A program made the position numbers and the translations under genes. This document shows, one piece after another, positions 4,477-58,682 of a DNA stretch of 64,000 bases. Under the pieces are notes generated by a model. It was not told where the DNA came from and searched no databases. It worked only from the letters and a program-made list of their open reading frames with translations. This DNA is from Eledone cirrhosa (taxonomy: Eukaryota): contig OZ024740.1 of NCBI GenBank assembly GCA_964016885.1, forward strand, positions 62,558,001 through 62,622,000, given 5' to 3'. Position 1 is the first letter of the stretch, and every line of letters starts with the position of its first letter.

Positions 4477-4930
4477 AAAATATTAATGTTATTAAGGATA
4501 TAATGTGAAAAGAAGTAGAAGAATGGATGAGTTATGAATTTAGAGGAATTAGTTAGTGTTTAAGTTTGTTTTTATGTAATGTAATATATGTGCGTAATAT
4601 ATGTACGTGAATAAAAATAAGCTTTCTGCGCTCATTTTTATTATCTATTATCTTCCAACGGCTTTTTAACTTCTCTCTGTGAGACAATATATATTTTTTC
4701 TCAGTTGTAAATGCTATCTCTCTCTCTCTATCACCCATCTCTCCTCTCTCCTCCTTCCTTCTTATACTCCTCCCCCACCATTCTTTATTCTCATCTCCTC
4801 CTCTTCCTTACCTTTTCCAACCCCCCTCACTTTTTCCCAATCTCATACATCAATCTTAAATTATTTTTCATATGTTGATTTAAAACTTCACTATGCACAA
4901 GTGTTTTTTAAGCTTCATATCATGTATCCC

Positions 4931-5001
4931 TATTTTATCTGACGAAAACGCAGATATCATCCCAGGATGATATTTGTTTTTGAAATGCGCATAATAAAAT
5001 A
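4931..5001 (+). ncRNA. Type I HHR family F2
   Basis: tattttat-CTGACGA-aaacgcagatatcatcc ca ggatgatatttgttttt-GAAAT-gcgc-ATA-ataaaata. Confidence 0.9.
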
Positions 5002-5053
5002 CTTGGAACTCTTTTAACCATCTTTTGATCTTATACATATATATACACATATA

Positions 5054-5094
<41 letters not shown>

Positions 5095-5104
5095 ATACAT
5101 ACAT

Positions 5105-6500
5105 CTGCCCTACCGAGACACCATCCTCGCCCCGTTGGTCGGCAATCTCCCCTCCCACATCCACGATACAAAACATGCCTTTAGACTTTTCAACTCTTTT
5201 TCCTTCCCTCCTGGTCCCGCCCGCCTTCTCTTTACCCTGGACATCACTTCTCTCTATACCATTATCCTTCACGATGACGGCCCCCGCGCTTTCCAGCATT
5301 TTTTAGATTTACGCCCTACCCCTTACCCCAGCACTACAATTCTTCTCTGTCTGTCTGAGCTTGTTCTTACCCTTAATGGATTTTCTTTTTAGGGTGAATT
5401 TTACCAGCAGGTTGATGGGAACCAGAATGGGTTCAAACAATGCCAACTTGTTTGTTGGCTACGTCGAAGCCCAGATCTCCTCCCAGTACGCTGGACCGAC
5501 TCCTGAGCTATACGGTCGTTATATCGACGACTGTATCGGCGCCACCTCTCTATCACGAGAACAGATCGACTGTTTTCTTTCTTTTGTCCAATTTTTCCAT
5601 CCTGTTCTCAATTTCACCGCCTCCGTCTCCGATTCTTCTGTCGCTTTTCTAGATATCTCTCTATCTATTAATCACTCTCACCCCACCCTCTCTACTTCCA
5701 TCTACATTAAACCAAAGACTCCCTATCTTATCTCGACTTCACCTCCTCCCATCCAACCCACACCAAACACTCCATAACCTATTCCCAATTCCTCCGTCTT
5801 CGTCGACTCTGTAGCCAGGACGGCGATTTCGAAACCAATTCCCTTCGCATGGCTTCCTGCTTCATGCAGCGTGGATATCCCCCCACCTTGATCCAAGCTG
5901 CTCTCACCCGCGCCTGTAAAACAGACCGCACCACAGCCCTCTCACCTCACACTTGCCCTCCCAACACCCGTGTTCCTTTCCCTCTCACCTACCTCCCCAT
6001 CACCCTACCACTCTGGCGACATATCCTCCGTTCCTTCTGTATCCTCTCTTCTGACCCCGTCACTTCTCACTTTTTTTCCAAACCCACCCATTACTGCTTT
6101 TAAGCGCGCCCGAAACGTCCGTGACCACCTGGTTCGCAGTTCTTTTTCGTCCTCTCCCACGACTCCACCCGGCTCTCATCCTTGCTCCCGTTCCCGCTGC
6201 AACACTTGTCCCTTTATTTCCACCCTCGCCACTCTTACAGGCCCCAACGGGTCTTTCCGTATCTGCCATTCCTTCACCTGCACATCCACCCACGTTGTCT
6301 ATGCTCTCCGGTGTTCCCTTTTCGGGTCTTTATATATCGGACAAACGGGACGCCGTATGGCGGACCATTTTGCCGAACATTTGAGGGACATACGACTCGG
6401 TTTGGATACTCCTGTCGCCCGTCATTTCTGTTCTCCTGGTCATTCTTCCCTACATGTTTCAGTCCTGGGTGCCCTTTTACATCATGGATCACAGGCTCGC
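5105..6500 (+). pseudogene. PLE RT + GIY-YIG (Neptune/Poseidon-type), frameshifted
   Basis: MGTRMG..ANLF, RYIDD, FLDI, RGYP, C..RC.TC, FTCTSTHVVY..C..YIGQTGR...EH..VARHF spread over ORFs 5135, 5361, 5849 and 5970. Confidence 0.9.
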
Positions 6501-6502
6501 TC

Positions 6503-7050
6503 GGATCATCACGAAATACCTCAGACTGGACTAAGATCCTTCTACCGTGATACCCACCAGAAATGAATTCAAAATGGCTAAGAATCATCACGTAGCCAGT
6601 GGTCAAGGCAGAAAGTTTTTGATTGGTGCCTGTCGGCGAGTAGGTTGGTGGCTAGAAAGCGCAGCCGAATACTGGGAGTTCCGAGCCTCGTGGATTTATC
6701 CAAGACCAGGTATATCCAAAATATGAAACGAAACCGCCGGTTGAGATTGAGAATTCTGGTAAATTTATGTGTATTTTTCTTCTAACTTCGATTTTGTACC
6801 TAATTCCGTGTAGTTAGCTATATGTCTAGTCAATTTCTACAGGCTAGAAGGAATATTAGGTAAATGTCATATACCTGTAACTCGCGGAAAAGTATCTGTA
6901 TCATTTGTCTATTATTTCTTCATAAGTACATTTTAAACTTATAGCCTCGTTTAAATGATTTTTTGTGTGGTTAATTTATACTGATTGGGAGAGGAAATAC
7001 TGTATATATTTTATCTAATGAGTCTTTAGACTTATAGCCTCGTTTAAATG
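6503..7050 (+). repeat. Unclassified dispersed repeat (family D)
   Basis: Diverged, collinear with the minus strand of 48625-49215; ends at (TA)n. Confidence 0.7.
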
Positions 7051-8274: not shown

Positions 8275-8500
<226 letters not shown>

Positions 8501-8846
8501 GGAAAAAATGAAATGAAATTTCATTTCCCACTCTTAGTACGGCTGTTACTTAAATATAAGTATGTATACGTACATACATATATGTATACAGACGTACAGT
8601 AGTATGTATATGATGGCTGCCCCCTCGTTATCGAGTATGGCCATTGCACGATATACCATTATTAATAATTATTAATTAATTCTATCATGCATATATATAT
8701 ATACATACATGCACACATATATATATGTACGTATGGATTCACCAAACATTTATTATAATGTTCGGTGTGTTTGTAAACAAACATCCCGTATTAAGCCGTA
8801 GTGTCTAGCAACCACCCTTGCTCCTTTGTTCAATACTGACAAAGGA

Positions 8847-8891
8847 ACGCTGTACTCTAGTTTCAAGCTTGTTAGCTATCGTCAGCAACGT
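8847..8891 (-). ncRNA. Minimal HHR F3
   Basis: acgttg-CTGACGA-t-agct aaca agct-t-GAAAC-taga-GTA-cagcgt on the minus strand. Confidence 0.8.
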
Positions 8892-8988
8892 ATATCTTCC
8901 TGCCAGATAGTTGAACGTCTACTCAGCCGTTAATATGCATACGGAAAGTATATACTTTCGGACGTTCAACTATCTGGCAGGAAGGTAT

Positions 8989-9031
8989 ACGCCGCTGATG
9001 ATAGCTAACAAGCTTGAAACTAGTACAGCGT
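8989..9031 (+). ncRNA. Minimal HHR F3
   Basis: acgccg-CTGATGA-t-agct aaca agct-t-GAAAC-ta-GTA-cagcgt. Confidence 0.82.
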
Positions 9032-9410
9032 TCCTTTGTCAGTGTTGAACAAACGAGCAACGGTGGTTGCTAGACACTACGGCTTAATACGGGATGTTTG
9101 TTTACAAACACACCGAGCATTATAATAAATGTTCAGTGAATCCATACGTACATATATGTGTGCATGTATGTATATATATACATACTGCTGTACGTCTGTA
9201 TACATATATGTATGTACGTATGCATACTTATATTTAAGTAACAGCCGTACTAAGAGTGGAAAATGAAATTTCGTTTCATTTTTTCCGTTTATCGTTTTCG
9301 GTGCACCCTGCCGATTAACCCACTCGATATGCAAATAGGGCTACTCAGCCGTTAATATGCATAAGGAAAGTATATACTTTCGGACGTTCAACTATCTGGC
9401 AGCAAAGTAT

Positions 9411-9453
9411 ACGTTGCTGACGATAGCTAACAAGCTTGAAACTAGTACAGCGT
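9411..9453 (+). ncRNA. Minimal HHR F3
   Basis: acgttg-CTGACGA-t-agct aaca agct-t-GAAAC-ta-GTA-cagcgt. Confidence 0.86.
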
Positions 9454-9654
9454 TCCTTTGTCAGTGTTGAACAAACGAGCAACGGTGGTTGGTAGACACT
9501 ACGGCTTAATACGGGATGTTTGTTTGCAAACACACAGAACATTATAATAAATGTTTGGTGAATCCATACGTACATATATATGTGTGTGCATGTATGTATA
9601 TATGTATACATACTACTGTACGTCTGTATACATATATCTATGTACGTATACTTA

Positions 9655-9705
<51 letters not shown>

Positions 9706-10199: not shown

Positions 10200-10264
<65 letters not shown>

Positions 10265-10297
10265 AAGAAATTAAAAGATGGTTAAAAAAGTTCCACG

Positions 10298-10368
10298 TAT
10301 TTTATTATGCGCATTTCAAAAACAAATATCATCCTGGGACGATATTTGCGTTCTCATCAGATAAAATA
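10298..10368 (-). ncRNA. HHR F2
   Basis: Reverse complement of the 13230-13300 motif, intact CTGATGA/GAAA core. Confidence 0.86.
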
Positions 10369-10950
10369 GGGAGACATGATATGATGCTTAAAAGAAACAC
10401 TTATGAACAAGGTAGTGTCTAATCAACATATGATAAATAAATTTAAAAGGATATAGGAGATTGGAAAAAAGGGAAGGAAGGGGGAAAAAAGGAAGGAAGA
10501 GGAAGAAAGGAAAAAAGGAAAAAAGAAGGAGATGATAACAGAGGAAGAGTATAAGAAGGAGGAAGGAGAGAGAAAGAGAAAGGAGAGAAAGAGAGAGATA
10601 TAAACATTTAAACTGAAAAACGCTGTCTCCACTGAGAAATAATTGAAAAAACGGTTGTAAATTTATAAATAAATTTAAAAAAATTAAAAAATTGAAAAAA
10701 TTAAAAATTGATGAGGTTTATGAATGCTGATGTTTATGATTGCAGATATAGAAATTAAGTATACTATTTATTTAGGGTTTATATAGTGAAGGATTTATTA
10801 AGAAGTGCGAAAAAGTTTTATTAAAATGTATTATTAAGATAAAATAAAGTAAAATAAGATAAGGTGAATAAAAATAAAATTAAATGATTTATAAGCTTAG
10901 AAGACGATATAGTGTCGTAGTTTGTTTAAATGGATTGTAATTGTAAAAGT

Positions 10951-11055
10951 AATGTTGAAAAGAGAAATGTTGAAAAAAGAAATGTTGAAAAAAGAAATGT
11001 TGAAAAAAGAAATGTTGAAAAAAGAAATGTTGAAAAAAGAAATGTTGAAAAAAGA
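10951..11055 (+). repeat. 15-bp tandem repeat x7 (aatgttgaaaaaaga) at the inversion junction
   Basis: Direct reading. Confidence 0.92.
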
Positions 11056-11478
11056 ATTTCTAATCTTCTAATAAACTTATCTTTGACGCTAAAGCCAATT
11101 ATTACAATAATGCGCTATCCACTAATGAAACCAATCATGGCAGAACTTATAGTAATATAGCTAGTTATAAGCATTCAAATAACATAAAGAAGAGACCTAG
11201 ATATAAAAATATTATTTGGTACAACGCTCCTTTTTCTCTTTCTATTATTAGTAATATTCCTAAATTATTTTTTAGGGCGTTAGATAATTGCTTCCCTCCT
11301 TCACATATTTATAGTAAGATCTTTAATAAGCATACAATTAAATTCTCTTATTCCACCACTTCCATCATTTCTAACATTATCTCAAAACATAATAATAAAA
11401 TATTAAATAATAAATCATATCCATCCAACCCTGAGCGTCATAGTAATAACACTATAAGGCCCGACGTCAATGTAAACT

Positions 11479-11646
11479 CTAGACAAGATAACTTAAATAT
11501 AAATACGACATCAAACGTAATTTCGATGAATGCTCCTAGACAAGATAACTTAAATATAAATACGACGTCAAACGTAATTTCGATGAATGCTCCTAGATAA
11601 GATAACTTAAATATAAATACGACGTTAAACGTAATTTTGATGAATG
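11479..11646 (+). repeat. 57-bp tandem repeat x3 inside the PLE linker
   Basis: ctaga(c/t)aagataacttaaatataaatacgac at 11479, 11536 and 11593. Confidence 0.9.
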
Positions 11647-13229
11647 TAATATAAATCAGGAAACATTAGCACCTCTTTTAGTTAATTTCTCCACTACAAT
11701 TCCTTCTATAAATAATTCTGGGCCACTTGCAAATAACTCTGTTAATAACATTAATCGTAAATGCAATTTCCCCAATAGAACTAAATGTCCTCTTAATAAT
11801 TAGTCTCGATAAAAATTTAGTATACGAATGTAAGGTGATAACTAGTACCAATTCTTATACCTACATTAGCTCTACTTCTACTTCCTTTAAGGCAAGATTA
11901 TATAACCATTCTTCGTCTTTTAAATACCCACTTAAAAGAACAAACACTGCACTCTAGGATCTCATCTGGTCCTTAAAAGACAAAAACATTATTTACAAAA
12001 TTTCTTGGCGTAAAATTTGAAATGCTTCTCCATATTCCAACGCTTACATATCTAGAACTTGTAATTTATGACTAGCGGAAAAATGTACCATTATCTCTAA
12101 TTTTAACTCTATAATAAATAGACTCACAGATTTATTTTTGCATCCATAAATCGGTTAGGTCATTTCATAAGTATACAGCTAATATCTTACTCCATAATTA
12201 AGATTAAAAACTTTTTCTCACACATATATATCTCTTTTTACACATTTACCCCTTTTTTCTCGCATATTTCAGTACATTCTACAAAGTTCATTCATACTTT
12301 TTTGGTCCCCTAATTTTTAAATTTTTAATTTAAAAACATTTTTTAATTCACTATAGCAAACTCCTTTATCTTCTTGGGGATACAAATTTTTTTAAATAGT
12401 TCATCTTTATATCATTTCTTTTCAATATTACTTTTTCTTAAGACGCTATATTTCTCAATTTTTTACTTCAAATCTATTAATAGTAGCATTAGGCGAATTT
12501 TGTAAACAAATTTTGACGTAATTTTTTCTTCCTCGTTTTTTTCTTCTTTTTTCTTCTCTTTTTTCCGTGCTTGTCTTAGCTTAAATAATTACTTTTTCAC
12601 AGAAATACTTTTTCAATTACAATCTATTTAAACAAACTAGGACCCTATATCGTCTTCTAAGCTTATAAATCATTTAATTTTATTTTTATTCACCTTATCT
12701 TATTTTACTTTATTTTATCTTAATAATTGATTCTATGTTTGGCACAATGCCAGCAATTTTATCTTAATAATACATTTTAATAAAACTTTTTCGCACATCT
12801 TAATAAATCCTTCACTATATAAACCCTAAATAAATAGTATACTTAATTCCTATATCTGCAATCATAAACATCATCATTCATAAACCTCATAAATTTTTAA
12901 TTTTTCAATTTTTTAATTTTTTAAAATTTATTTATAAATTTACAACCGTTTTTTCAATTATTTCTCAGTGGAGACAGCGTTTTTCAGTTTAAATGTTTAT
13001 ATCTCTCTCTTTCTCTCCTTTCTCTTTCTCTCTCCTTCCCCCTTCTTATACTCTTCCTCTGTTATTCTTTCCTTCTTTTTTCCTTTTTTTCCTTTCTTCC
13101 TCTTCCTTCTTTTTCCCCCCCTTCCTTCCCTTTTTTCCAATCTCCTATATCCTTTTAAATTTATTTATATGTTGATTAGACACTACCTTGTTCACAAGTG
13201 TTTCTTTTAAGCATCATATCAGGTCTCCC

Positions 13230-13300
13230 TATTTTATCTGATGAGAACGCAAATATCGTCCCAGGATGATATTTGTTTTTGAAATGCGCATAATAAAATA
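13230..13300 (+). ncRNA. HHR F2
   Basis: tattttat-CTGATGA-gaacgcaaatatcgtcc ca ggatgatatttgttttt-GAAAT-gcgc-ATA-ataaaata. Confidence 0.9.
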
Positions 13301-13362
13301 CATGGAACTTTTTTAACCATCTTTTAATTTCTTATATATATATATATATATATATATATCAA

Positions 13363-14008
13363 GTAAGTATGTTTTGAAACAGTGAGCAGGTTTGAAATTA
13401 GAAAATAGAATAGCTTTCACCGTAATTTTGACTAAGGGAATTTTAGCCTGATAATGGGGTTTAGAACCCTCAGATAAATGGAAAAAGATGAGTATTGACG
13501 TACATGGGAGTCGAACCCACATCTTTGGTTATCGCGACCACTGTGCTACCATTACACCAACACATCACCCATCTCTTTCCATTCAAATTAGAAGCTACAT
13601 TCTTAGCGAGTTTAAATGGCAAGTAATTATGTTTTGAAACAGTGAGCAGGTTTGAAATTAGAAAATAGAATAGCTTTCACCATTTATCTGAGGGTTATAA
13701 ACCCCATTATCAGGCTAAAATTCCTTTAGTCAAAATTACGGTGAAAGCTATTCTATTTTCTAATTTCAAACCTGCTCACTGTTTCAAAACATACTTCCTT
13801 GCCATTTAAACTCGCTAAGAATGTAACTTCTAATTTGAATGGAAAGAAATGGGTGATGTGTTGGTGTAATGGTAGCACAGTGGTCGCGATAACCAAAGAT
13901 GTGGGTTCGACTCCAATGTACGTCAATACTCATCTTTTTCCATTTATCTGAGGGTTCTAAACCCCATTATCAGGCTAAAATTCCTTTAGTCATAATTACG
14001 GTGAAAGC
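13363..14008. mobile_element. 260-bp unit containing a tRNA-like cloverleaf, in partial-tandem plus inverted arrangement, bounded by (TA)n
   Basis: gttttgaaac at 13371 and 13631; catttatctg at 13681 and 13941; orientation flips at ~13680. Confidence 0.82.
13855..13925 (+). ncRNA. tRNA-like cloverleaf (repeat-borne; second copy 13496-13566 on the minus strand)
   Basis: Acceptor gatgtgt/gtacgtc, D arm gtgt-aatggta-gcac, anticodon arm tggt-cgcgata-acca, T arm gtggg-ttcgact-cc(a/c)at. Confidence 0.7.
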
Positions 14009-14377
14009 TATATATATATATATATACATATATGTATATATATATATACATATATGTATATATATGTATATATATATATATATATACATATATGTGTATA
14101 TATATATATTTTTAGTTAATTCTATTGACTGATGAATAGCTTTTGTTAATTTTAAAACCATTCTGTTGAGAACTTAATTCGTTTTGTGATATTTTGCAAT
14201 TTTGCAATAATAACACACATACTGAATTTATCCGCCAAAACTAAGGGCTGGCCTCCTTGTCGAGCCCCACGTGGGTTTTGATAACGGTCAGTCCTTGGCT
14301 TGGCACTTGAACTAAAAGCCTGTTGAGAAAGTGACTGCCTTGTTCAATAATCTTACCAAAAGCTTAACATTATTTGT

Positions 14378-15941: not shown

Positions 15942-17639
15942 CTACATTTTAAATTTATATTTATATTTAAAAGTTGAGTTCAATCTATGTCTGCAGCAGC
16001 TGAATAAATTGGTCCGTAAATTAAGGGAATTTTTAGATTTTAGTATAAAGAATATCTCCTCCGCGCAGAGGTCACATGTCTCAGAAGAGGAATTAAAAGG
16101 AATCCCTTTTGAGACTATATTCCAAACCATCGAATATCCAACGTTATCATGTTTAAGTTGCCAGAGTAAGCCTGATAGTGATGTTGAAGATTTTTTATTT
16201 GGATCCGTGAAAGAATTCTTGTGATTATTATAGCGAAGTTTAAATTCTGTCGAGGTGGAACCAACATAATTAAAAGAATTTAAGTCAGTTTTAACATTAC
16301 AGTTGTATATTATATTTTTAACTAAGCAATTGTTATTTAGCGGACATTTAGATCTATCTCTACAGTTACAGTTGTTTACTTGAATATTGTTTAGGCTATT
16401 TTCGGTATTTTGGCTAGGTTTTAGATTCATATTATTTATTCTATTAATATTTTGTGCTAAAATTTTGGTGGACGAGTATGTTAATTTTATAGTATGTCTA
16501 TTGAAAATTGAGTGATACTTATGTGTTCTAGGGAAGCGTTTGTCAAGAGCATTAAAAAATAGTTTAGCGATGTGGGTTTTAATGTTTAGTGAGAAAGGGG
16601 GGGCAAACCATATTATATTTCTAGTTCTATTTCTTTTCTGGTTTTTGGAATTATTGTAATGCTTTCTATTATAGTTGTTAAAGTTGTTACCGTAATTAAA
16701 ATTGTTGTTATTTTGGTTAGTTTGTCTATTATCGATGTACATAATTTTATCACTATATCCTGCTCTAGCTAACGCTTCATTGTAATACTGAGCTTTTTCG
16801 TCGAAAATATTTTTATTAGATGAGATTCTAGAGATACGTTTTTGAACAGAGTTCACTATAGTATTTTTGACAAATCTGGGGTGATTAGAGCTAAAACTGA
16901 CATAATTCAAGTTTTCATTTAACTTGTGAAATGGATAGTGAAGACATATGTTGAGATTTAATGTTACATCTAGGAAATTGACTATTCTATGGTTATTCTC
17001 AATTTCTATTTTTAGATTAAGGTAATTAAAAAATTGTATAATTTGTTTTCTTTTTCTATTTAGTTCAGAGTTATTATTTTCAATAAGTAAAAGCATGTCA
17101 TCTCTATATAATCCTCCGGTAACACCGGGTATTTTCCTATGCAGCGAATTAATTATAAATAGGCCCACAAGGTCCGTTACCTGAGCTGAGTCTGATGATC
17201 CCAGAGTAATCTCGAAATTATTATCTCTATCTGCCCTAGTCCATAGTTGGTTATTAAATTCTATCAATGTTTTCCTTGCCGATAATATAATGTGCATTTC
17301 ATTGCTAGTTAGGTCTGTATGTTTGAATGCGTAATTTAGTGCCTTATTTAGTAGATTAGGTGTAATAGATGAATAGTAGTTAGCAATATCTAGTTGAATA
17401 AATTTCTTATTATTGTTATATTTAATTTCTTTAAACCACTCAATGACCTCTCCAGTTCCCTTCCACAAGCTCAAGTTAGGTAAACAATTCAAGTTCTTAA
17501 TTTGCTGTATCACCCTGTCTAGAATGCTTTTGCTAAGTTTACACAGGTCAGATTTTGATGGTGCAATCAATCTGACTGGCAAGTCATTTTCAAAATTTCT
17601 TTTGTGATCTTTCATATTGATCTTGGGTTTCCTGGGCAC
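15942..17639 (-). CDS. PLE reverse transcriptase + C-terminal GIY-YIG endonuclease, open but N-truncated (565 aa)
   Basis: [72 protein letters not shown]. Confidence 0.93.
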
Positions 17640-17697
17640 GAAAGGTTGTATTTACTCGTTGTAACCCAACAATTTTAAATAAAACTTTTGCATATAT

Positions 17698-20166: not shown

Positions 20167-20640
<474 letters not shown>

Positions 20641-20654
20641 ATATATATACATAC

Positions 20655-21810
<1,156 letters not shown>

Positions 21811-21834
21811 TATATATATATATTAATAAGAGGA

Positions 21835-22196
21835 ATTCCAACTTTGTCTGATTTACTCGTTTTATTTACAATCCTTTAAAATTTATAATGATATTTTAAT
21901 GAAATAGTATGATAGAATATTAAATGTTAAGTGTTAATTGAACAAGTACTTTCATGCTTTCGCAATCTTCAAGTTCATAATGTGTGGTGACAGTCAAGTT
22001 TGCAATTTTCAACTGATAGTTGAAAATTACAAACTTGACTGTCACCACACATTATGAACCTGAAGATTGCGAAAGCATGAAAGTACTTGTTCAATTAACA
22101 CTTAACATTTAATATTCTATCATTCTATTTCATTATAATACCATTATAAATTTTAAAGGATTGTAAATAAAACGAGTAAATCAGACAAAGTTGGAA
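21835..22196. repeat. ~360-bp near-perfect palindrome (family F7)
   Basis: Arms 21835-22014 and 22018-22196, apex caactgatagttg; HHR in each arm. Confidence 0.9.
22055..22093 (+). ncRNA. Very small HHR F7 (39 nt)
   Basis: tgaac-CTGAAGA-t-tgc gaaa gca-t-GAAAG-ta-CTT-gttca; the mirror copy 21939-21977 has TTGAAGA. Confidence 0.83.
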
Positions 22197-22231
22197 TATA
22201 ATCTTCTATACACAATCATACATACCCGTGT

Positions 22232-22321
<90 letters not shown>

Positions 22322-22420
22322 TACTGTACGTCTGCATACATATATGTATGTACGTATACATACTTATATTTAAGTATCAGCCGTAATAAGAGTGAGAAAT
22401 GAAATTTACCTTTTTCCATT

Positions 22421-22459
<39 letters not shown>

Positions 22460-22495
22460 GTATATATATATATATATATAGAAATATATATATAC

Positions 22496-22558
<63 letters not shown>

Positions 22559-23633: not shown

Positions 23634-23951
23634 CTTTTTCCGTATAGTAAGTTAATTCTGAATTCACTTTCTGTACTCTTATATTCTTTTTCTCCCTTAT
23701 CTCCCCTTATATTTAAACCTTTTCCTATGTAATTTATTTTCCTTATTTCCCCCCTACTTTTTACCTTACCCTTCACATACCCACCTTTTTTATTTTTAGA
23801 TATTTATTTCTGTGTGTGTGTGTGTGTTGCGTATATGCGTATATATGTATATATATATGCATGTATATGTATGTGTGTATGTATGTTTATATATATCTGT
23901 ATGTATATGTATGTGTGTATATAATTGTACTTTATATGCTTCTGTTGTATT

Positions 23952-24020
<69 letters not shown>

Positions 24021-24044
24021 GTGTATGTGTGTGTGTATTCTACA

Positions 24045-24668
24045 GCACCCAATCTCGATCTAATTATTAAAAAACTTAACTCCAAACGATTAGTCAGCAC
24101 ATCCGCACGAAGCACCCCAAACTACATTAACACTTCCTCAAACTCTCAACCATTGAATGTAAACCCTCCTGCAGCAGAAACACATATAAACCTAACGCAA
24201 CCTGTACAAGATAATAATACTACAAGAGCTGATAAGTGCAACTGCAACCTACCTGATCGTTGCCCTCTGAATAACAAATGCATGGAATCCAATATGGTGT
24301 ATCAATGCACCGTTGAATCGGATAACCGGAGATGGCACTATATCGGCTGTACCTCTACCACTTTTAAATCTCGTTGGTACCAACATCGTAGTTCGATGAA
24401 GAACATCAAATACCGTTCCGTAACTACCTTAGCCAATACAATTTGGCAGTTGCGCGAAAGTAACCTGCAATACACTTTGAAATGGACAAAACTCGCTAGT
24501 GCTTCCGCATATCATGCAGGCCAGCCTTACTGCCGATTATGCAATATGGAGCTATTTTACATACTAAAATCGAATTATACTCTTCTCAACAACAGAACGG
24601 AAAGGACTCTATATTGCAATCACAGACTCAAGGCTACGTTCTCGAAATACAAACCTGGCTTGATTTGA
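24045..24668 (+). pseudogene. Hydra-like PLE GIY-YIG 3' fragment
   Basis: CNCNLPDRCPLNNKC, MVYQC..YIGCT..FKSRW, CRLCNME..LLNNRTE..CNHR; the ORF N-terminus (23925-24040) is only microsatellite. Confidence 0.88.
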
Positions 24669-28615: not shown

Positions 28616-30550
28616 TTAATTAGGTTTATAATATTTAAATGTTTTTTTTAGTTTATGATTACACGATATAATTAATTCCTGTCTTTTATTTAATAAGATA
28701 TCCCTAGACTTCATTATTTCAAATAGTTCTTGGGAACATAATCTACATTCCTTTCTATTATTTTGATAAGGGGTGGCTCTTTTGAGCACACTCCAGGTCA
28801 AATCATATTTTATATTTTTATTTTTATAACTATTGATTTTTTCTGCTAGAGATGTTGTATTAGCCAGTGCGGCATTTTTAAAGCTATGTTTGTGGGTATT
28901 ATACCTTGTCTTAAAATTGTTAGAGGTAGCTCCTATATATGAGCAAATAGAATCTTTAGTTTTAACATTACATTTATAGACTATGTTGTTAACAAGACAA
29001 TTCCCTTTTAATGGGCAGTTTGTTTTGTTTCTACAGTTACATCCTTTCGTTAATTCTGTATTTGAGGAGATATTATTGTTAATTTGATGTACTGGTGGTA
29101 TACTTATGGTTTTCTTACATTTATATGCATTATATGCACTTATATTTTGTTTTATGTTATTTGTTGTAGAGTATGAGAATTTAACTGTAGACCTATTTAA
29201 GATTTGATGGTATTTGTGGTTTGGCGGGAAGTTTTTCTCAAGGATATAAAAAAATTTTTTAGCAATATTATCCTTAACTTGTAAATTAAAAGGAGCATTA
29301 TACCAAGTAACTCGTCTATTACGGTTTCTATGTTGTTTATTATTTTTATTATTTTTATATGTTGTATCATGATTTTTACTAGGAGGATTAATGTTAATGA
29401 TCTCACCACAACTATTTTTAGTTATATTTGTAGATTTAGGTGTTTTATCTTTTTTATTAGGAGTTTTATTATTAATATTTATTATAGTCGTATGATGAGT
29501 AGTTTTTTGAGGGTTACTATACTTTATATTAGAAGATTTAGTATTTTGGGGTATACTGTGGGTGGCATTTAGGTGTGTACTTTTCATTTGGTGTTTGTTG
29601 GTAATATTATGCTGTATGCTTTCAGTATTTTTAGTAGAAGGTATATACTCTAATCTATTTTTGTGGCCACTTCTATCTAGAGCTTCATTATAAAAGGTCG
29701 CATTTTTATCAAATACATCTTGGTTAGAAGAAAGGTTAGAAATTCTAAGTGATATATTATATGCAAGGTTTTTAAGGATAGATTTAGGGTGATTAGATTG
29801 TGAGTGTATGTAATGTAAGTTTTGGTTAGGTTTATGGTAAGGTTGGTATATACCCGTAGCTAAATCTAAAGTTATATCTAGGAAATTTACTACTTTACTT
29901 GTTTTTTCAAAAGTAATATTAAGATTATAATAGTCTTTAAGGAAAGTTCTAATATGCTTTTTGTTTTTTTCGATTTCTGAAAGGCTAAGGTTGTTAGAAA
30001 GAAGAAGACAGTCATCACGATATAAACCACCTTTGAGGTGGGGAAAAGAGGCATTTATGTTGAAAAGGAGAAAGAGGCCCACAAGATCAGTAATTTGGGC
30101 GGAATCGCTTGAACCCATAGTAATATCAAAAAGATTACTGTAAGTGTTTCTGGTCCAGTATTCATTCTGAAATTCAATAAGTGTTTGTCTAGCATGTGTA
30201 ATAATGTTAATGTCATCCGAAGTTAAATTAGATCTATTTTTAGCAAATATTAATGCTTTGTTCAGGAGTATGGGTGATATAGAAGAATAGTAATTATCTA
30301 TATCAAATTGTAGGAAAGAAGCAGAAGATTTACACCTAATATTTTTAAACCAATTAATTACCTGGGAGGTGTTTTCCCAGAGTGGTAAAATAACGTATTT
30401 TCTTATTTGTGGGATGACTCTATCTAAAATTTTTTTGCTAATTATTCCAATATCTGATTTGGAGGGACATATAAGTCTAATAGAAGGATTAGAGTTAAAG
30501 TTAGATTTGTGATCGTTCGTGGTTATGTGTATATTTATGCATATACGCAC
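28616..30550 (-). CDS. PLE RT + GIY-YIG, open but N-truncated (first ~12 codons come from the inverted repeat)
   Basis: DHK..IRLICPSKS, FLQFDI, MGSSDSAQITDLVG, GLYRDD, NFLD, WYNAPF, CNCRNKTNCPL, YIGAT..FKTRY, CRLC..LLNKRQE. Confidence 0.93.
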   Translation of the reverse strand: MRICINIHITTNDHKSNFNSNPSIRLICPSKSDIGIISKKILDRVIPQIRKYVILPLWENTSQVINWFKNIRCKSSASFLQFDIDNYYSSISPILLNKALIFAKNRSNLTSDDINIITHARQTLIEFQNEYWTRNTYSNLFDITMGSSDSAQITDLVGLFLLFNINASFPHLKGGLYRDDCLLLSNNLSLSEIEKNKKHIRTFLKDYYNLNITFEKTSKVVNFLDITLDLATGIYQPYHKPNQNLHYIHSQSNHPKSILKNLAYNISLRISNLSSNQDVFDKNATFYNEALDRSGHKNRLEYIPSTKNTESIQHNITNKHQMKSTHLNATHSIPQNTKSSNIKYSNPQKTTHHTTIININNKTPNKKDKTPKSTNITKNSCGEIININPPSKNHDTTYKNNKNNKQHRNRNRRVTWYNAPFNLQVKDNIAKKFFYILEKNFPPNHKYHQILNRSTVKFSYSTTNNIKQNISAYNAYKCKKTISIPPVHQINNNISSNTELTKGCNCRNKTNCPLKGNCLVNNIVYKCNVKTKDSICSYIGATSNNFKTRYNTHKHSFKNAALANTTSLAEKINSYKNKNIKYDLTWSVLKRATPYQNNRKECRLCSQELFEIMKSRDILLNKRQELIISCNHKLKKTFKYYKPN

Positions 30551-30850
30551 ATGTATGTGTGATTATACTGATATGTGTGAGTATGAAAAAAATATATTTA
30601 TATGCTTGACTCCATAAGTATCTTTGCGTATCTTATCAGCGCATTAAGCTTACAGAGATATTAACCTTGAAATTTTGTGTTTGCATCCATCTTTTTAGTA
30701 TACACATACAAATTATACACACATTATTGTAAAATATGTGTAAGGTTTTTGCATGTGTATACACACACCAAACTGCTTTTAACCCTTTGTGTTTTCATTG
30801 GTCAATTTTGAACTGATATTTTGAATTGTTGTTATTATCAATAAATATAC

Positions 30851-33959: not shown

Positions 33960-34240
33960 TAGTAACATGTGCTTACGCCGTATTTGACTAAATTAAATTA
34001 GTCTGTTAGTTGGGATTTAAAAACACCCCTCTGAATGGAAAAAAGGATGAATATTGACGTACTTGAGACACGAACCCACATCATTGTAATGGTAACACAT
34101 TGGTCCGGCAAACCAAAGATGTGGGTTCGTGTCTTGTGTACGTCAATACTCATCATTTTTTTCCATTCAGAGGTTTTTTTAAAATCCAAACTAATAGACT
34201 AATTTTATTTAGTCAAATACGGCGTAAGCACATGTTACTA
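33960..34240. repeat. Fold-back copy of a relative of the tRNA-like 260-bp family
   Basis: 33960-34082 inverted versus 34118-34240; tgtaatggtaacacattggtccggcaaaccaaagatgtgggttcg matches 13865-13909. Confidence 0.75.
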
Positions 34241-34689
34241 CTGAAAAATATTTACCTAAAAATAGAGTTCCTTGAGAAAACAGTAGGTGTGATATATACG
34301 ATGGTAGAATTGACAGAATAAAGAAACAGTAGAATGGTAATAATGGAGTAAATCATATGAACGGTTCTGCAGATTTGTGCTTGTGAGTGATGATGGTCGC
34401 GGTGTTGAAAATATATTTGATTGGTAGATGAGTGTATAAAATATTTAATGGATTTACTTTTGTAAACAGTGGGTGATGATGGTGATGAAATAGGAGTAAA
34501 TAAAAAAAGAAAAGGAGGTATGGAAAAAATAAGAAAATTAAAAATAAGAAGGAAATAAAAGAGAAAAGAGAAAAATAAACAAGAACATTTATGTTCCTTT
34601 TTTTGAAATTTATATATTTCCTTTCAAGGAATGTATTTATACTCTCAGCTGCCTGCAATGGTATCTATTTTTATCAATTTTTTAGTAAT

Positions 34690-43157: not shown

Positions 43158-43688
43158 CTAGTTCCATATTTAAATAGTATGTCACTCAAACTTTCCAGTG
43201 CCATAGAGAGCCAACCTAGCACCACAGTGCCATACTGCGGCACCCTAGCTTCAAAGAGACATATTTTTCCACACTATCTCCTCACTGCCATAGGGGGTCA
43301 CCCTAGCTCCATATTTCCATACTGTGTCACTAAAGCTCCCCAGTTCCATATTGTGTCACCCTAGCTCCCCAGTGCCATACAGCGGCACACTATCTTCGAA
43401 GTACCGTATTTTTCCACCCTATCTTCCCAGTGCCATACTGCTTCACCCTAGTCACTCAGTTCCATAGTGTGACACCCTAGCTCCACTGTTCCATAGTGTG
43501 ACACCCCATCTCACCATTGCCATACTGCGACATCCTAGTTCCATATTTCCAGAGCAAAAGTTGAAACGCTGTTTGATTTTTTTTTTTTGCCGTGGAATTT
43601 TCACCATCCGACTTCCTTCGTTTAAGTCATTCATCTCACGAGTGGACTGACACACGGACGGACACAATTCAACTTATATATAAATAGA
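43158..43688 (-). mobile_element. Possible non-autonomous Helitron with internal ~27-30-bp minisatellite
   Basis: Minus strand starts A|TCTATTTATATATAAG..gtccgtccgtgtgtc and ends CTAG|T; degenerate tandem caccctagctcccagtgccata at 43180-43550. Confidence 0.45.
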
Positions 43689-44292: not shown

Positions 44293-44337
<45 letters not shown>

Positions 44338-44387
44338 TATAAATTAAAATAAATAAGTCAAATATTTAAAATTTGGCTTCGTTTATT

Positions 44388-44442
44388 ACTGCTATATATA
44401 TTTCGGTGACAGCCATCTTTGGCTGTGACCTCTTCAGGCAGT
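44388..44442 (-). ncRNA. HHR F12
   Basis: Mirror image of 44523-44577. Confidence 0.88.
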
Positions 44443-44522
44443 CCGAATTAGTGTGGTAGAGACGAGTACACATGTTGTTGAGGTGTTTAACATGTGTACT
44501 CGTCTCTAGCACACTAATTCGG

Positions 44523-44577
44523 ACTGCCTGAAGAGGTCACAGCCAAAGATGGCTGTCACCGAAATATATATAGCAGT
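44523..44577 (+). ncRNA. HHR F12
   Basis: actgc-CTGAAGA-ggtcacagcca aaga tggctgtcacc-GAAAT-atat-ATA-gcagt-aataaa. Confidence 0.9.
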
Positions 44578-44724
44578 AATAAACGAAGCCAAATTTTAAA
44601 TATTTGACTTATTTATTTTAATTTATTTTACATTACTCCGAAGTAACCAAACCAACCTGCGCACCTCGTCGAGTGCTCCAATCTGCATACTCAGGTGTAG
44701 GTAAACAACCAACATATACTCAAA

Positions 44725-44833
<109 letters not shown>

Positions 44834-49577: not shown

Positions 49578-50391
49578 TTATATATATATATGTAGAAAAT
49601 ATCGAACACAGAAAAATAGCCATGAACATAGCTTTAGAGAATCGGGTAAAATACCCTTATAGACGGAAGAAGTGTACAGCAGCCGCAACAGAGAGTCGAA
49701 TTCTGTTCCTATCAAATTCCGATTAAATCTAATAAAAATGTAATTTATATTACTAATTGGACATACGCTTAAGACTTTCAGTATAGAAAGAGATAAATTA
49801 TATTTCACCAGCCCACCCATCCCAAAACGTCAACACCACATTTTGCTACGTCACAATATAAGTTATTAATTTGAATGTATTGTGTAGGTGTTATCTGTTA
49901 CATATAAATCTTGCTGCATAATTTTGTTTCCATTTACTTTAACCAAGAAATTTTGACAGTTTTAAAATATTTCAGTGATAGGCTATCCGATAGCTTTTTC
50001 CAGTTTTATTGTGAAACCATGTATTTTGTTTCTGTGATGTTCATTTTTGGTTCTTTAGCTGTTTATTTAATCATTTATCTTCAGAAAAACACAAATATAA
50101 AGGAATATATCATTATCACAATGTTTTAAACCAAACAAAACATTTGCTATTGTTTAATACATGATGCACTTTTCTACATTTTCGATTTATCAATTTCCCG
50201 AAATCACATACATAAAAATATTCTCTCAATATTTTCCCAACCACTCAATTATCTTTACTTGATTTCGTTTTCAGATCGTGCCTTTATATCCTTTTATCGC
50301 TATATGATTGATTTACTTACTTGAAATACCACTAAAATCTGACAATTCTGTAGTAAATAAGACACATGTATCTATCTATCTATCTATCTAT

Positions 50392-51983
50392 CAAACTCTC
50401 CTTGAAAGGTCGAGCGGAGGTGGCGAACACTTACATAGCGTCCGTCATCTACTACCGCTTAACAGTCGTGCCTTGCCCCGGCGAATACCTTACCAAAATG
50501 GAACGCATACTCTTCAAGTTCCCCTGGAAGAAACAGGCTCCATTGGTGAGGAGATCCATCTGCTGTCAACACCCTTCTAACGGAGGGCTGGGCATGCCGT
50601 GGCTGATGATGCGCAAACATGCGCTGAGGCTACGCCATCTCCAGGTATTCCTGACCGGTGAACCGGTGTGGCTGTCGTTTGTGAGACAAGCTCTTCCACC
50701 ACTCGTCTCACTAACAGAGCTGCACTCCTGGGTCAAGCGAAGACTGAAAATGGGTGCCTGGCACCTCGAGTGCCTACAGGCGCTCACAGCCCTCTACCAA
50801 GCGGAAACGGCAATCAGCGCAAACTCCACTTACATAGCGTCCGTCATCTACTACCGCTTGATAGTCGTGCCTGTCCCCCGCGAATACCTTACCAAAATGG
50901 AATGCCTACTCTACAAGTTCCTCTGGAAGAAACTGGCTCCATTGGTGAGGAGATCCATCTGCTGTCAACACCCTTCTAACGGAGGGCTGGGCATGCCGTG
51001 GCTGATGATGCGCTAACACGCGCTGAGGCTACGGCATCTCCAGGTATTCCTGACCGGTGAACCGGTGTGACTGCCGTTTGTGATACAAGCTCTTCCACAA
51101 CTCGTCTCACTAACAGAGCTGCAGTCCTGGGTCAAGCGAAGACCGAAAATGGGTGCCTGGGACCTCGAGGCCTTCAGGTGCTCACAGCCCTCTACCAAGT
51201 GGAAACGGAAATCAGCGGAGACTCCACTTCGACATTCTATAGGGGATTAGTGGAGGATAAGTGCGACGACGTTCTCGGGGAAACTCATCGAGGAGGACGA
51301 ACTGACCAGTCTGTTCGGGAGGACTTTCCGTCCAGGGCCTATGGGTAACTTCCAGAGGTCTCTGGCCTGACAGTGCTACCGAGGAGCTCTATCAGTTCGA
51401 GACAAAATCTACAGGCACGGACAAAATCTACAGACAAAATCTAAAGACCTGTCCAAGATGCGAGCAGGACATTGAAACCGTTCTGAACGCAATTGTTCAG
51501 TGCCCAGGGGTGACCGACCTGTCACGTGTGGGACGCATCAAGTTGTCAGCCGAGTGCATCGTGAGGATCACCCCGCCGCCTTCATTTAAGAACGAAGGAG
51601 AGGCGGTTTTCCTCTGTCTGGTGGCTATGGCGAAATAGGTAATATGGTGGACGAGGTTAAAAGGACTGAGGGCAAATACCTTTCTCTCCGGACAACAACT
51701 TATCCCCTTCTTTAAGTATCACTTCAGAAGGAAGGTGAGAGTGGAGAGAGAGGTGCTACACCCCAGTAAATTCGCTGAAAGGTGGGTGAATGTGGCAAAA
51801 ATGGCCCGAGTGAATGGGCCTTCTCTGTATATAAACCTGTAGGTTGAGGAAGATAAACAGAGGGAAGACAGGAACACTTATAAAACGTGTTCCTGGTGTT
51901 GAGGGTTGTTCTATCCACGGGGTGTAAAACAACCCTGCAGTAATGTCCCATTTTTGTACGCCCCTGTGGCAAATAGAGAAAGA
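50392..51983 (+). mobile_element. Tx1/L1-like LINE 3' part with a 399-bp internal tandem duplication
   Basis: LSLKGRAEVANTYIASVIYYRL..FKF.WK..V.RSIC...GGLGMP; duplication starts at 50428 and 50827; flanked by (TCTA)n. Confidence 0.85.
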
Positions 51984-52692
<709 letters not shown>

Positions 52693-53989: not shown

Positions 53990-54912
53990 TACACCTACAC
54001 TCATTTATCCACATGAAGTAAGAGATACCAGTTCCTCCTCATTTCGACCATATAAAAAGTCGCCTCTTACTGCAGAGGATCTCAGCAGTACGGGGTCCAA
54101 GGACGCCTGAGGTCTCGACGGTGACCTGTGCGAAGAGGAACTGGCCGAACAATCCCCGGTATTTTTTTATTTTCCTTTCCTCTGCATTGCAGGCCACGGT
54201 ACCGGCTGAAGCGACTAAGTTGGAGGCGGAGAAAGTGTCACAACATGTGGTGTCCCAGATTAGGGATCTACCTCCTTCGAATGGGAAGAGGGTAATTCCA
54301 TTGGGGCGTTTGCCGTCTCCGAGGTCAAGGCCTGCTGGCTCCAGTCATGATAGGAAGACAGTTGCGTCCAGGCTCCTTCTCAATATGTTGTTGAGAGCAG
54401 AATATCGGAGGAACTGGCTTGCGCTCTGGCGGCAAGACAGTGGGTGCAGGCCGAATTTGTCAACGACCGCCCCGCAACGGCATTTATGTGGCTCACACAT
54501 GCAGAGGCTGAGGGATTGGGCCGCTCTGATGCGAGTGCACTGGTCATCAAGAAGGGTACCGGTTGATAAGGAGGACACCGAAATGAGCCACGCGCCACTG
54601 TTTGGCGGAGAAATGGATCTGAGGTAGGCGAGACGGTATTGTTACAAGCCGGACTTGATCTGCCTAAAAGAAGACCTGCATTTGTATACATTTGTATATA
54701 GTATATGTTTGTATACTGGGTGACAGAGAGGCCTTCGCCTGTCAAGTCGGCCAGAAACTGTTTAAGCTCTGAGGCCACGTCAAGTTCGGCTGTCTTGCTG
54801 AGAACCTCGCTGACAAGAGCGCGACTGGAGGAGATTGAGGAAAGGTAGACCGGTATGGCTAGATCCGAAGCTGATCGGAGGCCGAGGCCACCGAACCTCA
54901 CTGAGAGCTTCA
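53990..54912 (-). mobile_element. CRE-clade non-LTR retrotransposon 3' fragment (restriction-like endonuclease)
   Basis: LSVRFGGLGLRSA, CRCG..VD..GLH.LSC, then LEPAGLDLGDGKRPNGITLFPFEGGRSLIWDTTC; stops and frameshifts. Confidence 0.8.
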
Positions 54913-55215
54913 AAACACACATTTATGATGTGAAAGCGAAGGGGAAAAGGGGAAATCAGCGTTCTAAGGGTGAGAGAAAGGGAGATGAGAGTGAACCTGG
55001 GCAGAATGAGATGGTCAGAATAGTATACACACACACACACACACCCACACACACTTATGTATATATATATATATAAATGTAATCTGAGTTTTTCGAATAT
55101 TAATAATAACATTCGATTCGTTTGCAATTATGCAAACAAGCCTTAATTTTATAGCCATGTCAGTAGAATGAACCCTTCATTCTTGCTCTTGTGTTGGCAT
55201 GTGAACAGAAAATTT

Positions 55216-56591
<1,376 letters not shown>

Positions 56592-56742
56592 ATACTTTGG
56601 GAGGGTCATGTTGCCAATAAGAAACACACGCACCAGTTGCTTTCACTTCAATTTAATTTATTATATATTTATAAATTTACAAATTTATAAATTTCTGGTT
56701 GGTTGGTTGGTTCCACAACCAGATAGTTGTTTATATATATAT

Positions 56743-56787
56743 AGTCATAGTTCTTTCGTCACACACTCTGTGACCTCTTCAGTGACT
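56743..56787 (-). ncRNA. HHR F6
   Basis: Mirror image of 58638-58682. Confidence 0.82.
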
Positions 56788-58637
56788 GGGGATTTCTTTC
56801 TTCGTTTCTGTGCCTTTCTTTTCTTCTATCCTACGCCATTTTGTTTGTGTGTGGGTTGCGTGCTCAGTTTGCGCATGCGCCACATCCGGGTGTCTGTGTG
56901 TGTTTGTGTTCATTTTTCTATTTTTCTATTTATATTTTTCTATTTGTTTGTTTATTTATTTATTTATTGTTGGTTGGTTGTTTGTTCTATGTGTGTGTGT
57001 GTTTTCATTTTGTCTTGTGTGTGTTTTCATTTTGTGTGTGTTTTCAATTGTAAGTTGTTTGTTCTATGTGTGTGTGTGTTTTCATTTTGTCCTTAATTGT
57101 AAGTTGTGATGTTGCTGTTCCACTCATATTTTCTATTTAATTTTGGTTTTAATTCTTTTATGCTTACTGCCTCTGTAATTTGCCTAAACATTGCGTCTTT
57201 CTTGTGTGTGGATTCTATTTTTATTTCTATGCTCTCTAATTTACCCCTGTGTTCTATCTTAGCATGTTGGTAGAGCACAGATGATTCTTTATTATCTTGG
57301 AGGTCTCGCCAGTGTTCATTTATTCGTTCCCCTATACTACGAGCTGTCTCACCTATGTACACTATATTTTTGTTTCTACATTGTCCTTCAGTACATCTTA
57401 TGCTATATACTACATTTCTAGTTTTACAGTTAATATGGGGGCTTATTTTACAGGTTATACATTTCTTATCTATACATGAGGGTCTTTGGAACGGGTATGT
57501 CTTGCTAATAAGTGTTTTTACGGAGGTACCAGGTCTTTCTACTATCTTAATATTGAGATTATGTTTCTTTAGGGCCCTTCTAAATTTGTAGGCTAGTTCG
57601 CCTCTAGCTACAATCTGAGAGATAGAATCAGAGTGTATAAAGGAGCCAGAACCAAATGGGAAAAAATGGTAAATAATGACATAAATGGGACCTGCCCCTT
57701 GTATAGGAGCAAATTTTGGAATAGAATAGAAAGAACTAAGAACAAGGCCAATAGAATAAACTCATGGTATGATAGCAATAAATACCAGAGTGTAATGTTC
57801 ATCAATACAACCCCTAAAGGCGAACTAGCCTACAAATTTAGAAGGGCCCTAAAGAAACATAATCTCAATATTAAGATAGTAGAAAGATCTGGTACCTCCG
57901 TAAAAACACTTATTAGCAAGACATACCCGTTCCAAAGACCCTCATGTATAGATAAGAAATGTATAACCTGTAAAATAAGCCCCCATATTAACTGTAAAAC
58001 TAGAAATGTAGTATATAGCATAAGATGTACTGAAGGACAATGTAGAAACAAAAATATAGTGTACATAGGTGAGACAGCTCGTAGTATAGGGGAACGAATA
58101 AATGAACACTGGCGAGACCTCCAAGATAATAAAGAATCATCTGTGCTCTACCAACATGCTAAGATAGAACACAGGGGTAAATTAGAGAGAGAGCATAGAA
58201 ATAAAAATAGAATCCACACACAAGAAAGACGCAATGTTTAGGCAAATTACAGAGGCAGTAAGCATAAAAGAATTAAAACCAAAATTAAATAGAAAATATG
58301 AGTGGAACAGCAACATCACAACTTACAATTAAGGACAAAATGAAAACACACACACACATAGAACAAACAACTTACAATTGAAAACACACACAAAATGAAA
58401 ACACACACAAGACAAAATGAAAACACACACACACATAGAACAAACAACCAACCAACAATAAATAAATAAATAAACAAACAAATAGAAAAATATAAATAGA
58501 AAAATAGAAAAATGAACACAAACACACACAGACACCCGGATGTGGCGCATGCGCAAACTGAGCACGCAACCCACACACAAACAAAATGGTGTAGGATAGA
58601 AGAAAAGAAAGGCACAGAAACGAAGAAAGAAATCCCC

Positions 58638-58682
58638 AGTCACTGAAGAGGTCACAGAGTGTGTGACGAAAGAACTATGACT
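58638..58682 (+). ncRNA. HHR F6
   Basis: agtca-CTGAAGA-g-gtcaca gagtg tgtgac-GAAAG-aa-CTA-tgact. Confidence 0.84.

Follow-up and report, generated by a model that had tools for sequence, protein, structure and literature searches.

Insertions of PLEs have a characteristic anatomy, which the available text of PMC8557442 describes as partial tandems accompanied by a 5′-truncated copy in inverted orientation, with a tail of 30-40 bp on one side and (TA)n as the target. According to the accessible part of PMC11167929, a PLE protein nicks and extends both target strands; its two start sites are internal to its RNA and delimit the tail, and RNA located 3′ of them is required. Given this last requirement, a passenger of such a protein would have to be tandem or circular, since the part that is left uncopied must recur upstream. 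Animal non-LTR retrozymes, which consist of short non-coding tandem units and have circular RNA intermediates, were proposed to be non-autonomous users of PLE enzymes (PMC7229834; bioRxiv 10.64898/2026.07.22.740005; both as far as their text is available).

Here we analyzed a window of 64,000 nucleotides from Eledone cirrhosa (contig C1, 62558001-62622000; genome searches covered 3.0 Gb), in which a 260-nt unit with a tRNA-like module forms a two-armed insertion. The unit resembles the non-LTR retrozymes in being short, non-coding, tandem and likely copied by a PLE. It differs from them in that retrozymes, in the available portions of the two reports, contain a type I hammerhead in each unit and are related to pLTRs, whereas our unit contains a tRNA-like module and shows neither a hammerhead core nor pLTR similarity; the word 'tRNA' has 0 occurrences in the main text of bioRxiv 10.64898/2026.07.22.740005. 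In the schistosome Sm-alpha/Sj-alpha elements, as here, a Pol III-type promoter lies inside a tandem unit, and a tandem neighbour is needed to propagate. Their monomers are freed by an active hammerhead, unlike the 260-nt unit, which has none, and the accessible part of their description mentions neither two-register PLE-type ends nor a stop at the T arm (PMC6765202). With EN+ PLEs (Neptune/Nematis, Poseidon PAc) the unit shares the partial tandems, the inverted 5′-truncated copy, the tail at one end, the (TA)n targets and the two internal starts, but it has no ORF, no hammerhead and no sequence in common with them, and its tail measures about 40-55 nt vs 30-40 in the available text on these elements (PMC8557442, PMC11167929). 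Non-autonomous PLEs of Chlamys, e.g., MRC1, form head-to-tail insertions, and most Chlamys elements have no canonical hammerhead; they generally match their autonomous partner at the 3′ end, and the part of PMC8557442 available to us does not mention a tRNA module. A tRNA-derived sequence in the terminal repeat of a non-autonomous, non-SINE element is found in Helenus/TRIMp3, which the accessible text describes as LTR-type, with PBS, PPT and 4-5-bp TSDs, whereas the 260-nt unit has PLE-type ends (PMC10886601).

The unit is also similar to tRNA-derived SINEs in its A and B boxes and its many dispersed copies, and is set apart from them by layout, not by sequence comparison, as it shows no head-first arrangement, A tail or TSD. 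Ohshima and Okada are said to have described tRNA-derived SINE families of octopus in 1994. An octopus annotation includes 893 recently active unclassified SINE families (available text of PMC13282606), and units of the present type could be among them. In annotations, such units are likely to appear wrongly as tRNA-Ser genes or to be placed with the unclassified SINEs. Our literature searches, conducted outside subscription journals, Dfam and Repbase, retrieved no published PLE passenger that bears a tRNA and is free of a ribozyme.

The locus and its tRNA-like module

The element spans positions 13360-14011 of the window, a small correction to the 13363-14008 given by the original prediction. 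It consists of two arms that are joined 5′-to-5′, are 97-99% alike and hold 1.24 and 1.30 copies of a unit with a period of 260. We numbered the unit such that its position 1 is window position 13740 and its position 260 is window position 13999. The left arm (13360-13681, minus strand) comprises unit 1-260 followed by 1-62 and ends at a register that we term long (62). The right arm (13674-14011, plus strand) comprises unit 195-260, 1-260 and 1-12, and ends by TA microhomology at the short register (12). At the inversion junction (13674-13681) the bases are compatible with both arms. The PLE-type tail, unit 13-62, is present on the left end of the locus only (13360-13409, minus strand). Target runs of (TA)n border the element on both sides, at 13333-13359 and 14009-14109, the left one doubling as the 3′ end of a neighbouring hammerhead-bearing repeat. 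A partly tandem 260-bp unit on both strands, with a central inversion and (TA)n borders, had been proposed, and all these features were recovered.

The cloverleaf with A and B boxes noticed earlier at 13855-13925 (plus strand) was confirmed by two programs. ARAGORN reported tRNA-like genes at 13854-13926 (+) and 13495-13567 (-), and Rfam RF00005 scored 33.5 and 41.2 bits for the two copies vs a gathering score of 29. The second complete copy is on the minus strand at 13496-13566, with its A58 at 13511, so that each arm contains one full copy. In unit numbering the cloverleaf occupies 116-186 and stands on a 15-bp stalk that prolongs the acceptor stem. For the right copy the 5′ strand of the stalk is at 13840-13854 and the 3′ strand at 13928-13942 (both plus strand), the latter including a T5 run (13935-13939) that is a candidate Pol III terminator. 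The extension of the acceptor stem had been predicted as well, and it pairs at 14/15 positions in the right copy and 15/15 in the left copy. At this locus the cloverleaf is non-decoding, with G33 and T37 and, in the right copy, also a T-stem mismatch at 13915. A canonical anticodon loop (U33, purine 37) is not kept across the copies, and the loop differs among subfamilies of family A, to which the locus belongs.

The D arm of the unit is the same as the tRNA-Gln D arm of the genome except for one base. A pattern derived from the window plus one extra base matched 73 genome sites, and four scanned loci hold tRNA-Gln genes. By this resemblance, the module is likely derived from tRNA-Gln. At 168.21-168.28 Mb of contig C1 (L212-L222), the D arm of tRNA-Gln is matched about 29 times in a recurring arrangement, and the loci scanned there contain tRNA-Gln(TTG) genes.

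To the stalk and cloverleaf we added four predicted hairpins on the plus strand: HP0 (13814-13827), HP1 (13952-13964), HP2 (13974-13992) and HP3 (13739-13781), the 25-nt loop of which contains most of the short priming ends. The proposed structure was 91.5% paired over 26 copies vs 37-49% when slid. The stalked tRNA fold obtained a z of -2.27 vs shuffles, a modest value, with 8/200 shuffles being equally good. Covariation was modest too: the changes were mostly one-sided, some two-sided counts in the stalk look like T runs that have shifted, and HP3 provided a single clear compensatory pair when family A was compared with family B. RNAalifold favoured a rod over the cloverleaf.

In agreement with the absence of a canonical hammerhead noted before, no exact CUGANGA core was found on either strand of the consensus of family A or B, near-matches were not conserved between the families, and no Rfam ribozyme was matched with E up to 10. 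A vestigial hammerhead was considered and rejected, as the CUGANGA/GAAA-like words of a young subfamily are missing from the other A subfamilies and from B. The Rfam miRNA matches at the locus reflect only the long inverted repeat.

Insertion ends in families A and B

The unit at 13360-14011 is a member of a dispersed family, family A. A DNA search gave 1,345 candidates, and among the 40 that were scored the best had 95-97% identity. An exact 21-mer of the tail (unit 33-53) has 1,833 matches in the genome (control 0), and a 17-mer of the D arm has 1,925. Arms of family A have a median identity of 95% to their consensus. An older sister, family B, was found via a weaker match at 33971-34290, where two arms are likewise arranged head to head and tRNA position 58 is a T. 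Family B aligns to A over the whole unit, and its identity is 90% vs 95% in A, a difference of age; the search for it gave 1,614 candidates, and a 25-mer of its tail has 151 matches.

End statistics for A were based on 90 loci from the first 100 tail-word matches listed on contig C1; removing 4 duplicates and one long array left 85 loci, the 13360-14011 locus included. For B, 90 loci from the first 100 tail-word matches listed were reduced to 88 by removing 2 duplicates. Because loci were picked by the tail word, each must contain a long or multi-unit arm, which disfavours short+short pairs and not long+long pairs. The end counts come from a stricter BLAST scoring, as a permissive one crossed the palindromic junctions and created false 5′ ends. 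The array that was set aside (L095, C1:131459300-131465500 and beyond) is a head-to-tail series of more than 20 A units at about 85% identity, with an inverted arm in front.

Read in the sense of the tRNA, the arms have fixed 3′ ends and variable 5′ ends. In family A, 135/150 arms end at a priming register beside a microsatellite. These registers are unit 55-66 (long) and unit 9-29 and 243-259 (short), about 45 nt apart. Adjacent arms are joined 5′-5′ in 56 cases and 3′-3′ in 0, and 46/48 two-armed loci combine a long with a short end while 0 are long+long. The same holds for family B, with 54 joints of the 5′-5′ type and 0 of the 3′-3′ type, and with 30/36 two-armed loci being long+short and 1 long+long. 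Seventeen of the 135 A arms are longer than one unit and 21/135 extend upstream beyond unit 109; some arms measure 457-615 nt, traverse two tRNAs and continue beyond the second. The whole tRNA is retained in only 24/85 A loci. At 14/46 A loci the 5′ extent of the short arm exceeds that of the long arm by more than 15 nt, and at these loci the second arm was therefore not simply copied from the first arm as it is now preserved. The original prediction that poly-A tails and TSDs are lacking held across the family: a run of A6+ follows only 1/150 arms at the 85 A loci, and no TSD was seen at these loci, where a shared flank word occurred in 2/85, both TA-like (a TA-only TSD is indistinguishable from the target).

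These family-wide end statistics support the earlier proposal that the element is non-autonomous, has the insertion anatomy of PLEs and lacks a hammerhead, and on the grounds of this anatomy we regard mobilization by a PLE as very probable.

In the tandem junctions of family B (L129, L133, L138, L145) a variable TA-like spacer separates the long 3′ end from the next unit, and 10 B arms begin exactly at such a spacer, which suggests target-homology joining at both ends.

The same data bear on other origins of these copies. An ordinary LINE-dependent tRNA SINE, inserted by L1-style twin priming, would account for the tRNA-derived head, for the 5′ truncation with inversion and for the minority of arms that begin at the head. 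However, the near absence of poly-A, with no TSD seen, the outward orientation of both arms, each with its own fixed 3′ register, and the location of the tRNA inside a permuted tandem unit largely refute this explanation, to which we give hardly any credence. Amplification at the DNA level without RNA, as a fold-back element or a dispersed satellite, is suggested by the perfect palindromic junctions at many loci and by the one long 85%-identical tandem array, but it is very unlikely in view of the strict polarity of fixed 3′ and variable 5′ ends, the asymmetric long+short ends in place of terminal inverted repeats, and the stops that follow tRNA landmarks and the base at position 58. An alternative that departs from PLE mobilization in the way the RNA is produced, and not in the helper, is a Pol III-transcribed SINE that borrows PLE enzymes; its RNA would start at the tRNA head, leak through the T runs and template 0.8 or 1.8 units. 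The A and B boxes are indeed intact, and SINE-like tandem elements of schistosomes are described as Pol III-driven in the available text of PMC6765202. Moreover, an arm starts at unit 107-123 in 10/85 loci, both arms start within 108-129 in five loci (L031, L065, L100, L106, L107), and 12/33 arms reaching the tRNA-head zone stop in 110-133, compared with 0/21 in 86-109. The starts at the head are compatible with initiation by Pol III as well as with cutting by RNase P. They also qualify the distinction from ordinary SINEs, for which the original prediction had named copies starting at the tRNA head and flanked by TSDs: the head starts do occur, in these 10/85 loci, but TSDs were not seen. Transcription by Pol III is difficult to reconcile with the T5 run 10 nt behind the tRNA, where most Pol III transcripts should end, with a T4 further on, and with the T7, T6 and T4 of family B. 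The 21 arms that extend upstream past unit 109 and the 17 that exceed one unit speak against it too, and the 457-615-nt arms would require a template upstream of the tRNA head. Altogether, we find a Pol III-transcribed SINE unlikely.

Arm ends at the T arm and base 58

Most arms of family A stop just 3′ of A58 in the T loop (unit 171; window 13910, plus strand). Of the arms reaching unit 181, 63/103 end in 170-181, while neighbouring 12-nt windows account for 0-8%. In family B only 3/75 arms stop at the T arm, and when one arm per locus is counted the numbers are 37/58 for A vs 1/52 for B. The base at position 58 was A in 34/34 family A T loops read and T in 31/31 of family B. A downstream palindrome is common to both families; they also differ in age and at further positions of the T loop, and A58 is hence one variable among several. 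Most T-arm ends have been cut back to TA microhomology or to a palindrome of four bases at 176-179, and the junctions of L097, L087 and L108 retain sequence to unit 172 or 171. Additional stop zones were seen at the anticodon loop (7/40 arms in the first pass at the 85 loci, 7/14 in the second pass) and at the tRNA head, as given above. Among 15 listed contig joints, to which 89 more can be added, 14 leave the left arm at 13493-13510, just 3′ of A58; the contigs are from three runs on one sample, are possibly not independent, and were given no weight.

The two arms of a locus behave alike. Both arms extend to the T arm at 34 loci; the two stop together at 23 of these, pass together at 10 and differ at 1 (33/34 alike). 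Arms that come to the T arm a second time stop there in 2/18 cases (binomial 2e-5 against 0.61), a count based on 121 pooled loci, some of which had been picked for full units. Because the arms agree and the second pass rarely stops, the block at the T arm belongs to the template molecule or the copying complex as a whole and does not strike each unit independently. Agreement in stopping could come about by fold-back on one cDNA. The read-through at the second pass fits best with a circle, where copying would come to one and the same base two times, but is also compatible with unmodified multimers, and the counts of shared rare variants (12/156 in the same register, 7/197 in a different pass) do not separate circle from multimer.

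What might cause the stop? In the accessible text of a previous study, m1A was found in GUUCRA stem-loops of non-tRNA transcripts and causes truncation (10.1101/202747). Considering the position of the stop within the module, we think it reasonably probable that host m1A58, made by TRMT6/61A on the GUUCRA stem-loop, is responsible. In arms that read through, there was no excess of misincorporation at A58 (3/114 vs 40/1,601 at other A positions), which speaks against m1A. It would be expected if the pile-up at the T arm marked the 5′ end of the RNA and not a methyl block, this end being generated by a nuclease acting within or next to the T loop, or by RNase P/Z cutting a multimer into units. 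The all-or-none behaviour of the arms is equally well accounted for by an RNA end or a modification common to both, and the secondary stop zones at the anticodon loop and the tRNA head are in line with cutting. On the other hand, the stop depends on the family (A58 vs T58), and the longest junction sequences retained end at unit 171-172. Paired leaders and trailers hinder both RNase P and RNase Z. In addition, RNase Z would leave ends at 187, and only 5/108 arms stop in 182-193, which leaves little support for the earlier suggestion that RNase Z defines the RNA. We thus judge a nuclease cut improbable, and return to m1A58.

The observed anatomy, end registers, stop position, A-vs-B contrast and agreement of the two arms can be joined in one scheme, in which the unit is a ribozyme-free PLE passenger that is copied twice from one RNA, with m1A58 as the stop. 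We consider this scheme probable, although it does not account for the 7/14 second-pass stops at the anticodon loop. A PLE protein, most likely of the Neptune/Nematis type, would nick both strands of a (TA)n run, and a single RNA, multimeric or circular, would template two cDNAs primed at internal positions that are separated by about 45 nt. Aided by TA microhomology, priming would take place at unit 55-66 for the long end and at 9-29 or 243-259 for the short end, and joining of the far ends of the cDNAs would generate head-to-head arms with the tail on one of them. The tRNA-Gln-derived module would fold on the RNA, and the host likely methylates its A58. The m1A58 would block the reverse transcriptase, leaving about 60% of the arms with ends at the T arm, and these blocked ends would be sealed via the short local palindrome or TA microhomology. 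RNAs that escape the block would give rise to arms longer than one unit, such as those of the 13360-14011 locus, and only such arms would keep the whole tRNA and the tandem junction, and hence could be source copies. As the source of the RNA, our guess is read-through transcription of tandem copies.

A more tentative extension of this scheme, possible but doubtful, is that small RNA circles without a ribozyme parasitize PLEs, the stalked tRNA mimic replacing the hammerhead. A PLE dimer would copy one circle from both target strands, m1A58 would serve as an all-or-none throttle, and family B would evade it via T58. If so, modified circles would end as dead copies without a tRNA, unmodified ones would roll past the unit junction and become new source copies, and the genome would be a fossil record of RNA modification and of single-template two-strand priming by PLEs.

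If the unit is indeed a PLE passenger, PLEs would have a tRNA-derived class of passengers, alongside the SINEs of LINEs and the Helenus of LTR elements, and retrozyme-like spread would be possible without a ribozyme. The 260-nt unit would provide a small natural template for questions on PLEs, such as the binding site of the enzyme, two-strand priming on one RNA and 5′-end joining. The A58/T58 pair of families may serve as a ready test of whether host RNA modification limits a retroelement in the germline.

Candidate helper and neighbouring repeats

Many PLE-like ORF pieces are encoded in the window, and for one family, our candidate helper, a GIY-YIG match was obtained on a window fragment. 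A truncated head-to-head copy of this clade lies at 56587-58897; it includes the GIY-YIG ORF piece (57093-57761) and a hammerhead core at 58643, and has its short end near 56587 and its long end near 58897. In the fetched DNA the family shows two end clusters, of 10 and 19 ends, and 5/5 pairs are short+long. For the candidate helper and a close relative taken together, 50 loci gave 68 ends, of which 37 fall between ATG+21 and +29 and 24 between +67 and +86; 14/14 scorable pairs (13 distinct; 3 unscored) are short+long. A degenerate pattern of the ORF start of the helper family and a relative has 12,731 matches in the genome. Three full copies (L333-L335) contain open ORFs of 1266-1279 aa with YVDD and a CX4CxxC linker before a GIY-YIG-like motif. 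These copies are 99.8-99.9% identical, very young and younger than family A, and the true helper would therefore be an older relative of them.

The CX4CxxC linker marks Neptune or Nematis, as stated in the available part of PMC8557442. By its motifs and the GIY-YIG match on the window fragment, the PLE with the intact ORF is most likely of the Neptune/Nematis type; a Poseidon-type assignment was rejected because of the linker. The full ORF had no passing match in Pfam or PDB and no significant match to two other PLE pieces. The link between this clade and the unit is an anatomical match only, by which the clade is most likely that of the helper. The unit and the candidate helper share no significant sequence, their alignment scores being at shuffle level, apart from one 37-nt, 78% antisense match of B (E 0.002) over a T-rich stretch. 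Likewise, no sequence was shared with the ends of the other PLE families of the window and the fetched loci (771 kb), and the unit is not the pLTR of the PLEs compared, a possibility that had been raised along with the original prediction. A search for the helper by homology, using an nhmmer profile of the non-tRNA part, gave 665 matches in the 771 kb; all but 2 were A or B, and neither of the 2 was a PLE end. Derivation of the B tail from a PLE ORF start was rejected too, as the two look alike in a few codons but align no better than shuffled sequences.

In five further hammerhead-bearing repeats of the neighbourhood, the ends fell for the most part into a single cluster and were paired like with like, and two additional repeats yielded too little for a judgement; these queries ended at the end of the window copy itself, and a further end may be missed. 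Two end clusters about 100 nt apart were seen in a hammerhead-bearing palindromic repeat at 44300-44728 and at L246. The repeat end next to our element (13140-13332; also at 10236-10951 and 4697-5104) has a canonical-looking type I hammerhead with its core at 13238 and a palindromic stem III, and shares with the left arm the (TA)n run in which it terminates. It is paired in inverted orientation with 10236-10951, and a PLE-like ORF piece (11064-11600) lies between the two. Further PLE-like ORFs or fragments are found at 293-784, 15942-17651, 23925-24668, 28616-30562 and 59978-61052. Two of these are stop-free, with 569 and 648 aa, and none has a Pfam match; their CxC-type linker suggests the Hydra clade. 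A frameshifted PLE at 5018-6566 has a CX4CxxC linker and is Neptune-like. At 8495-9704 and 20230-22555 we observed a retrozyme-like repeat, tandem and inverted, bounded by (TA)n and with a minimal hammerhead core every ~420-510 bases. Finally, a 29-bp minisatellite, duplicated ORF pieces and two more ORF fragments are located at 43158-43551, 50357-52465, 54380-54922 and 63095-63511; we take the duplicated pieces to be LINE-like and the two fragments to be transposon-like.
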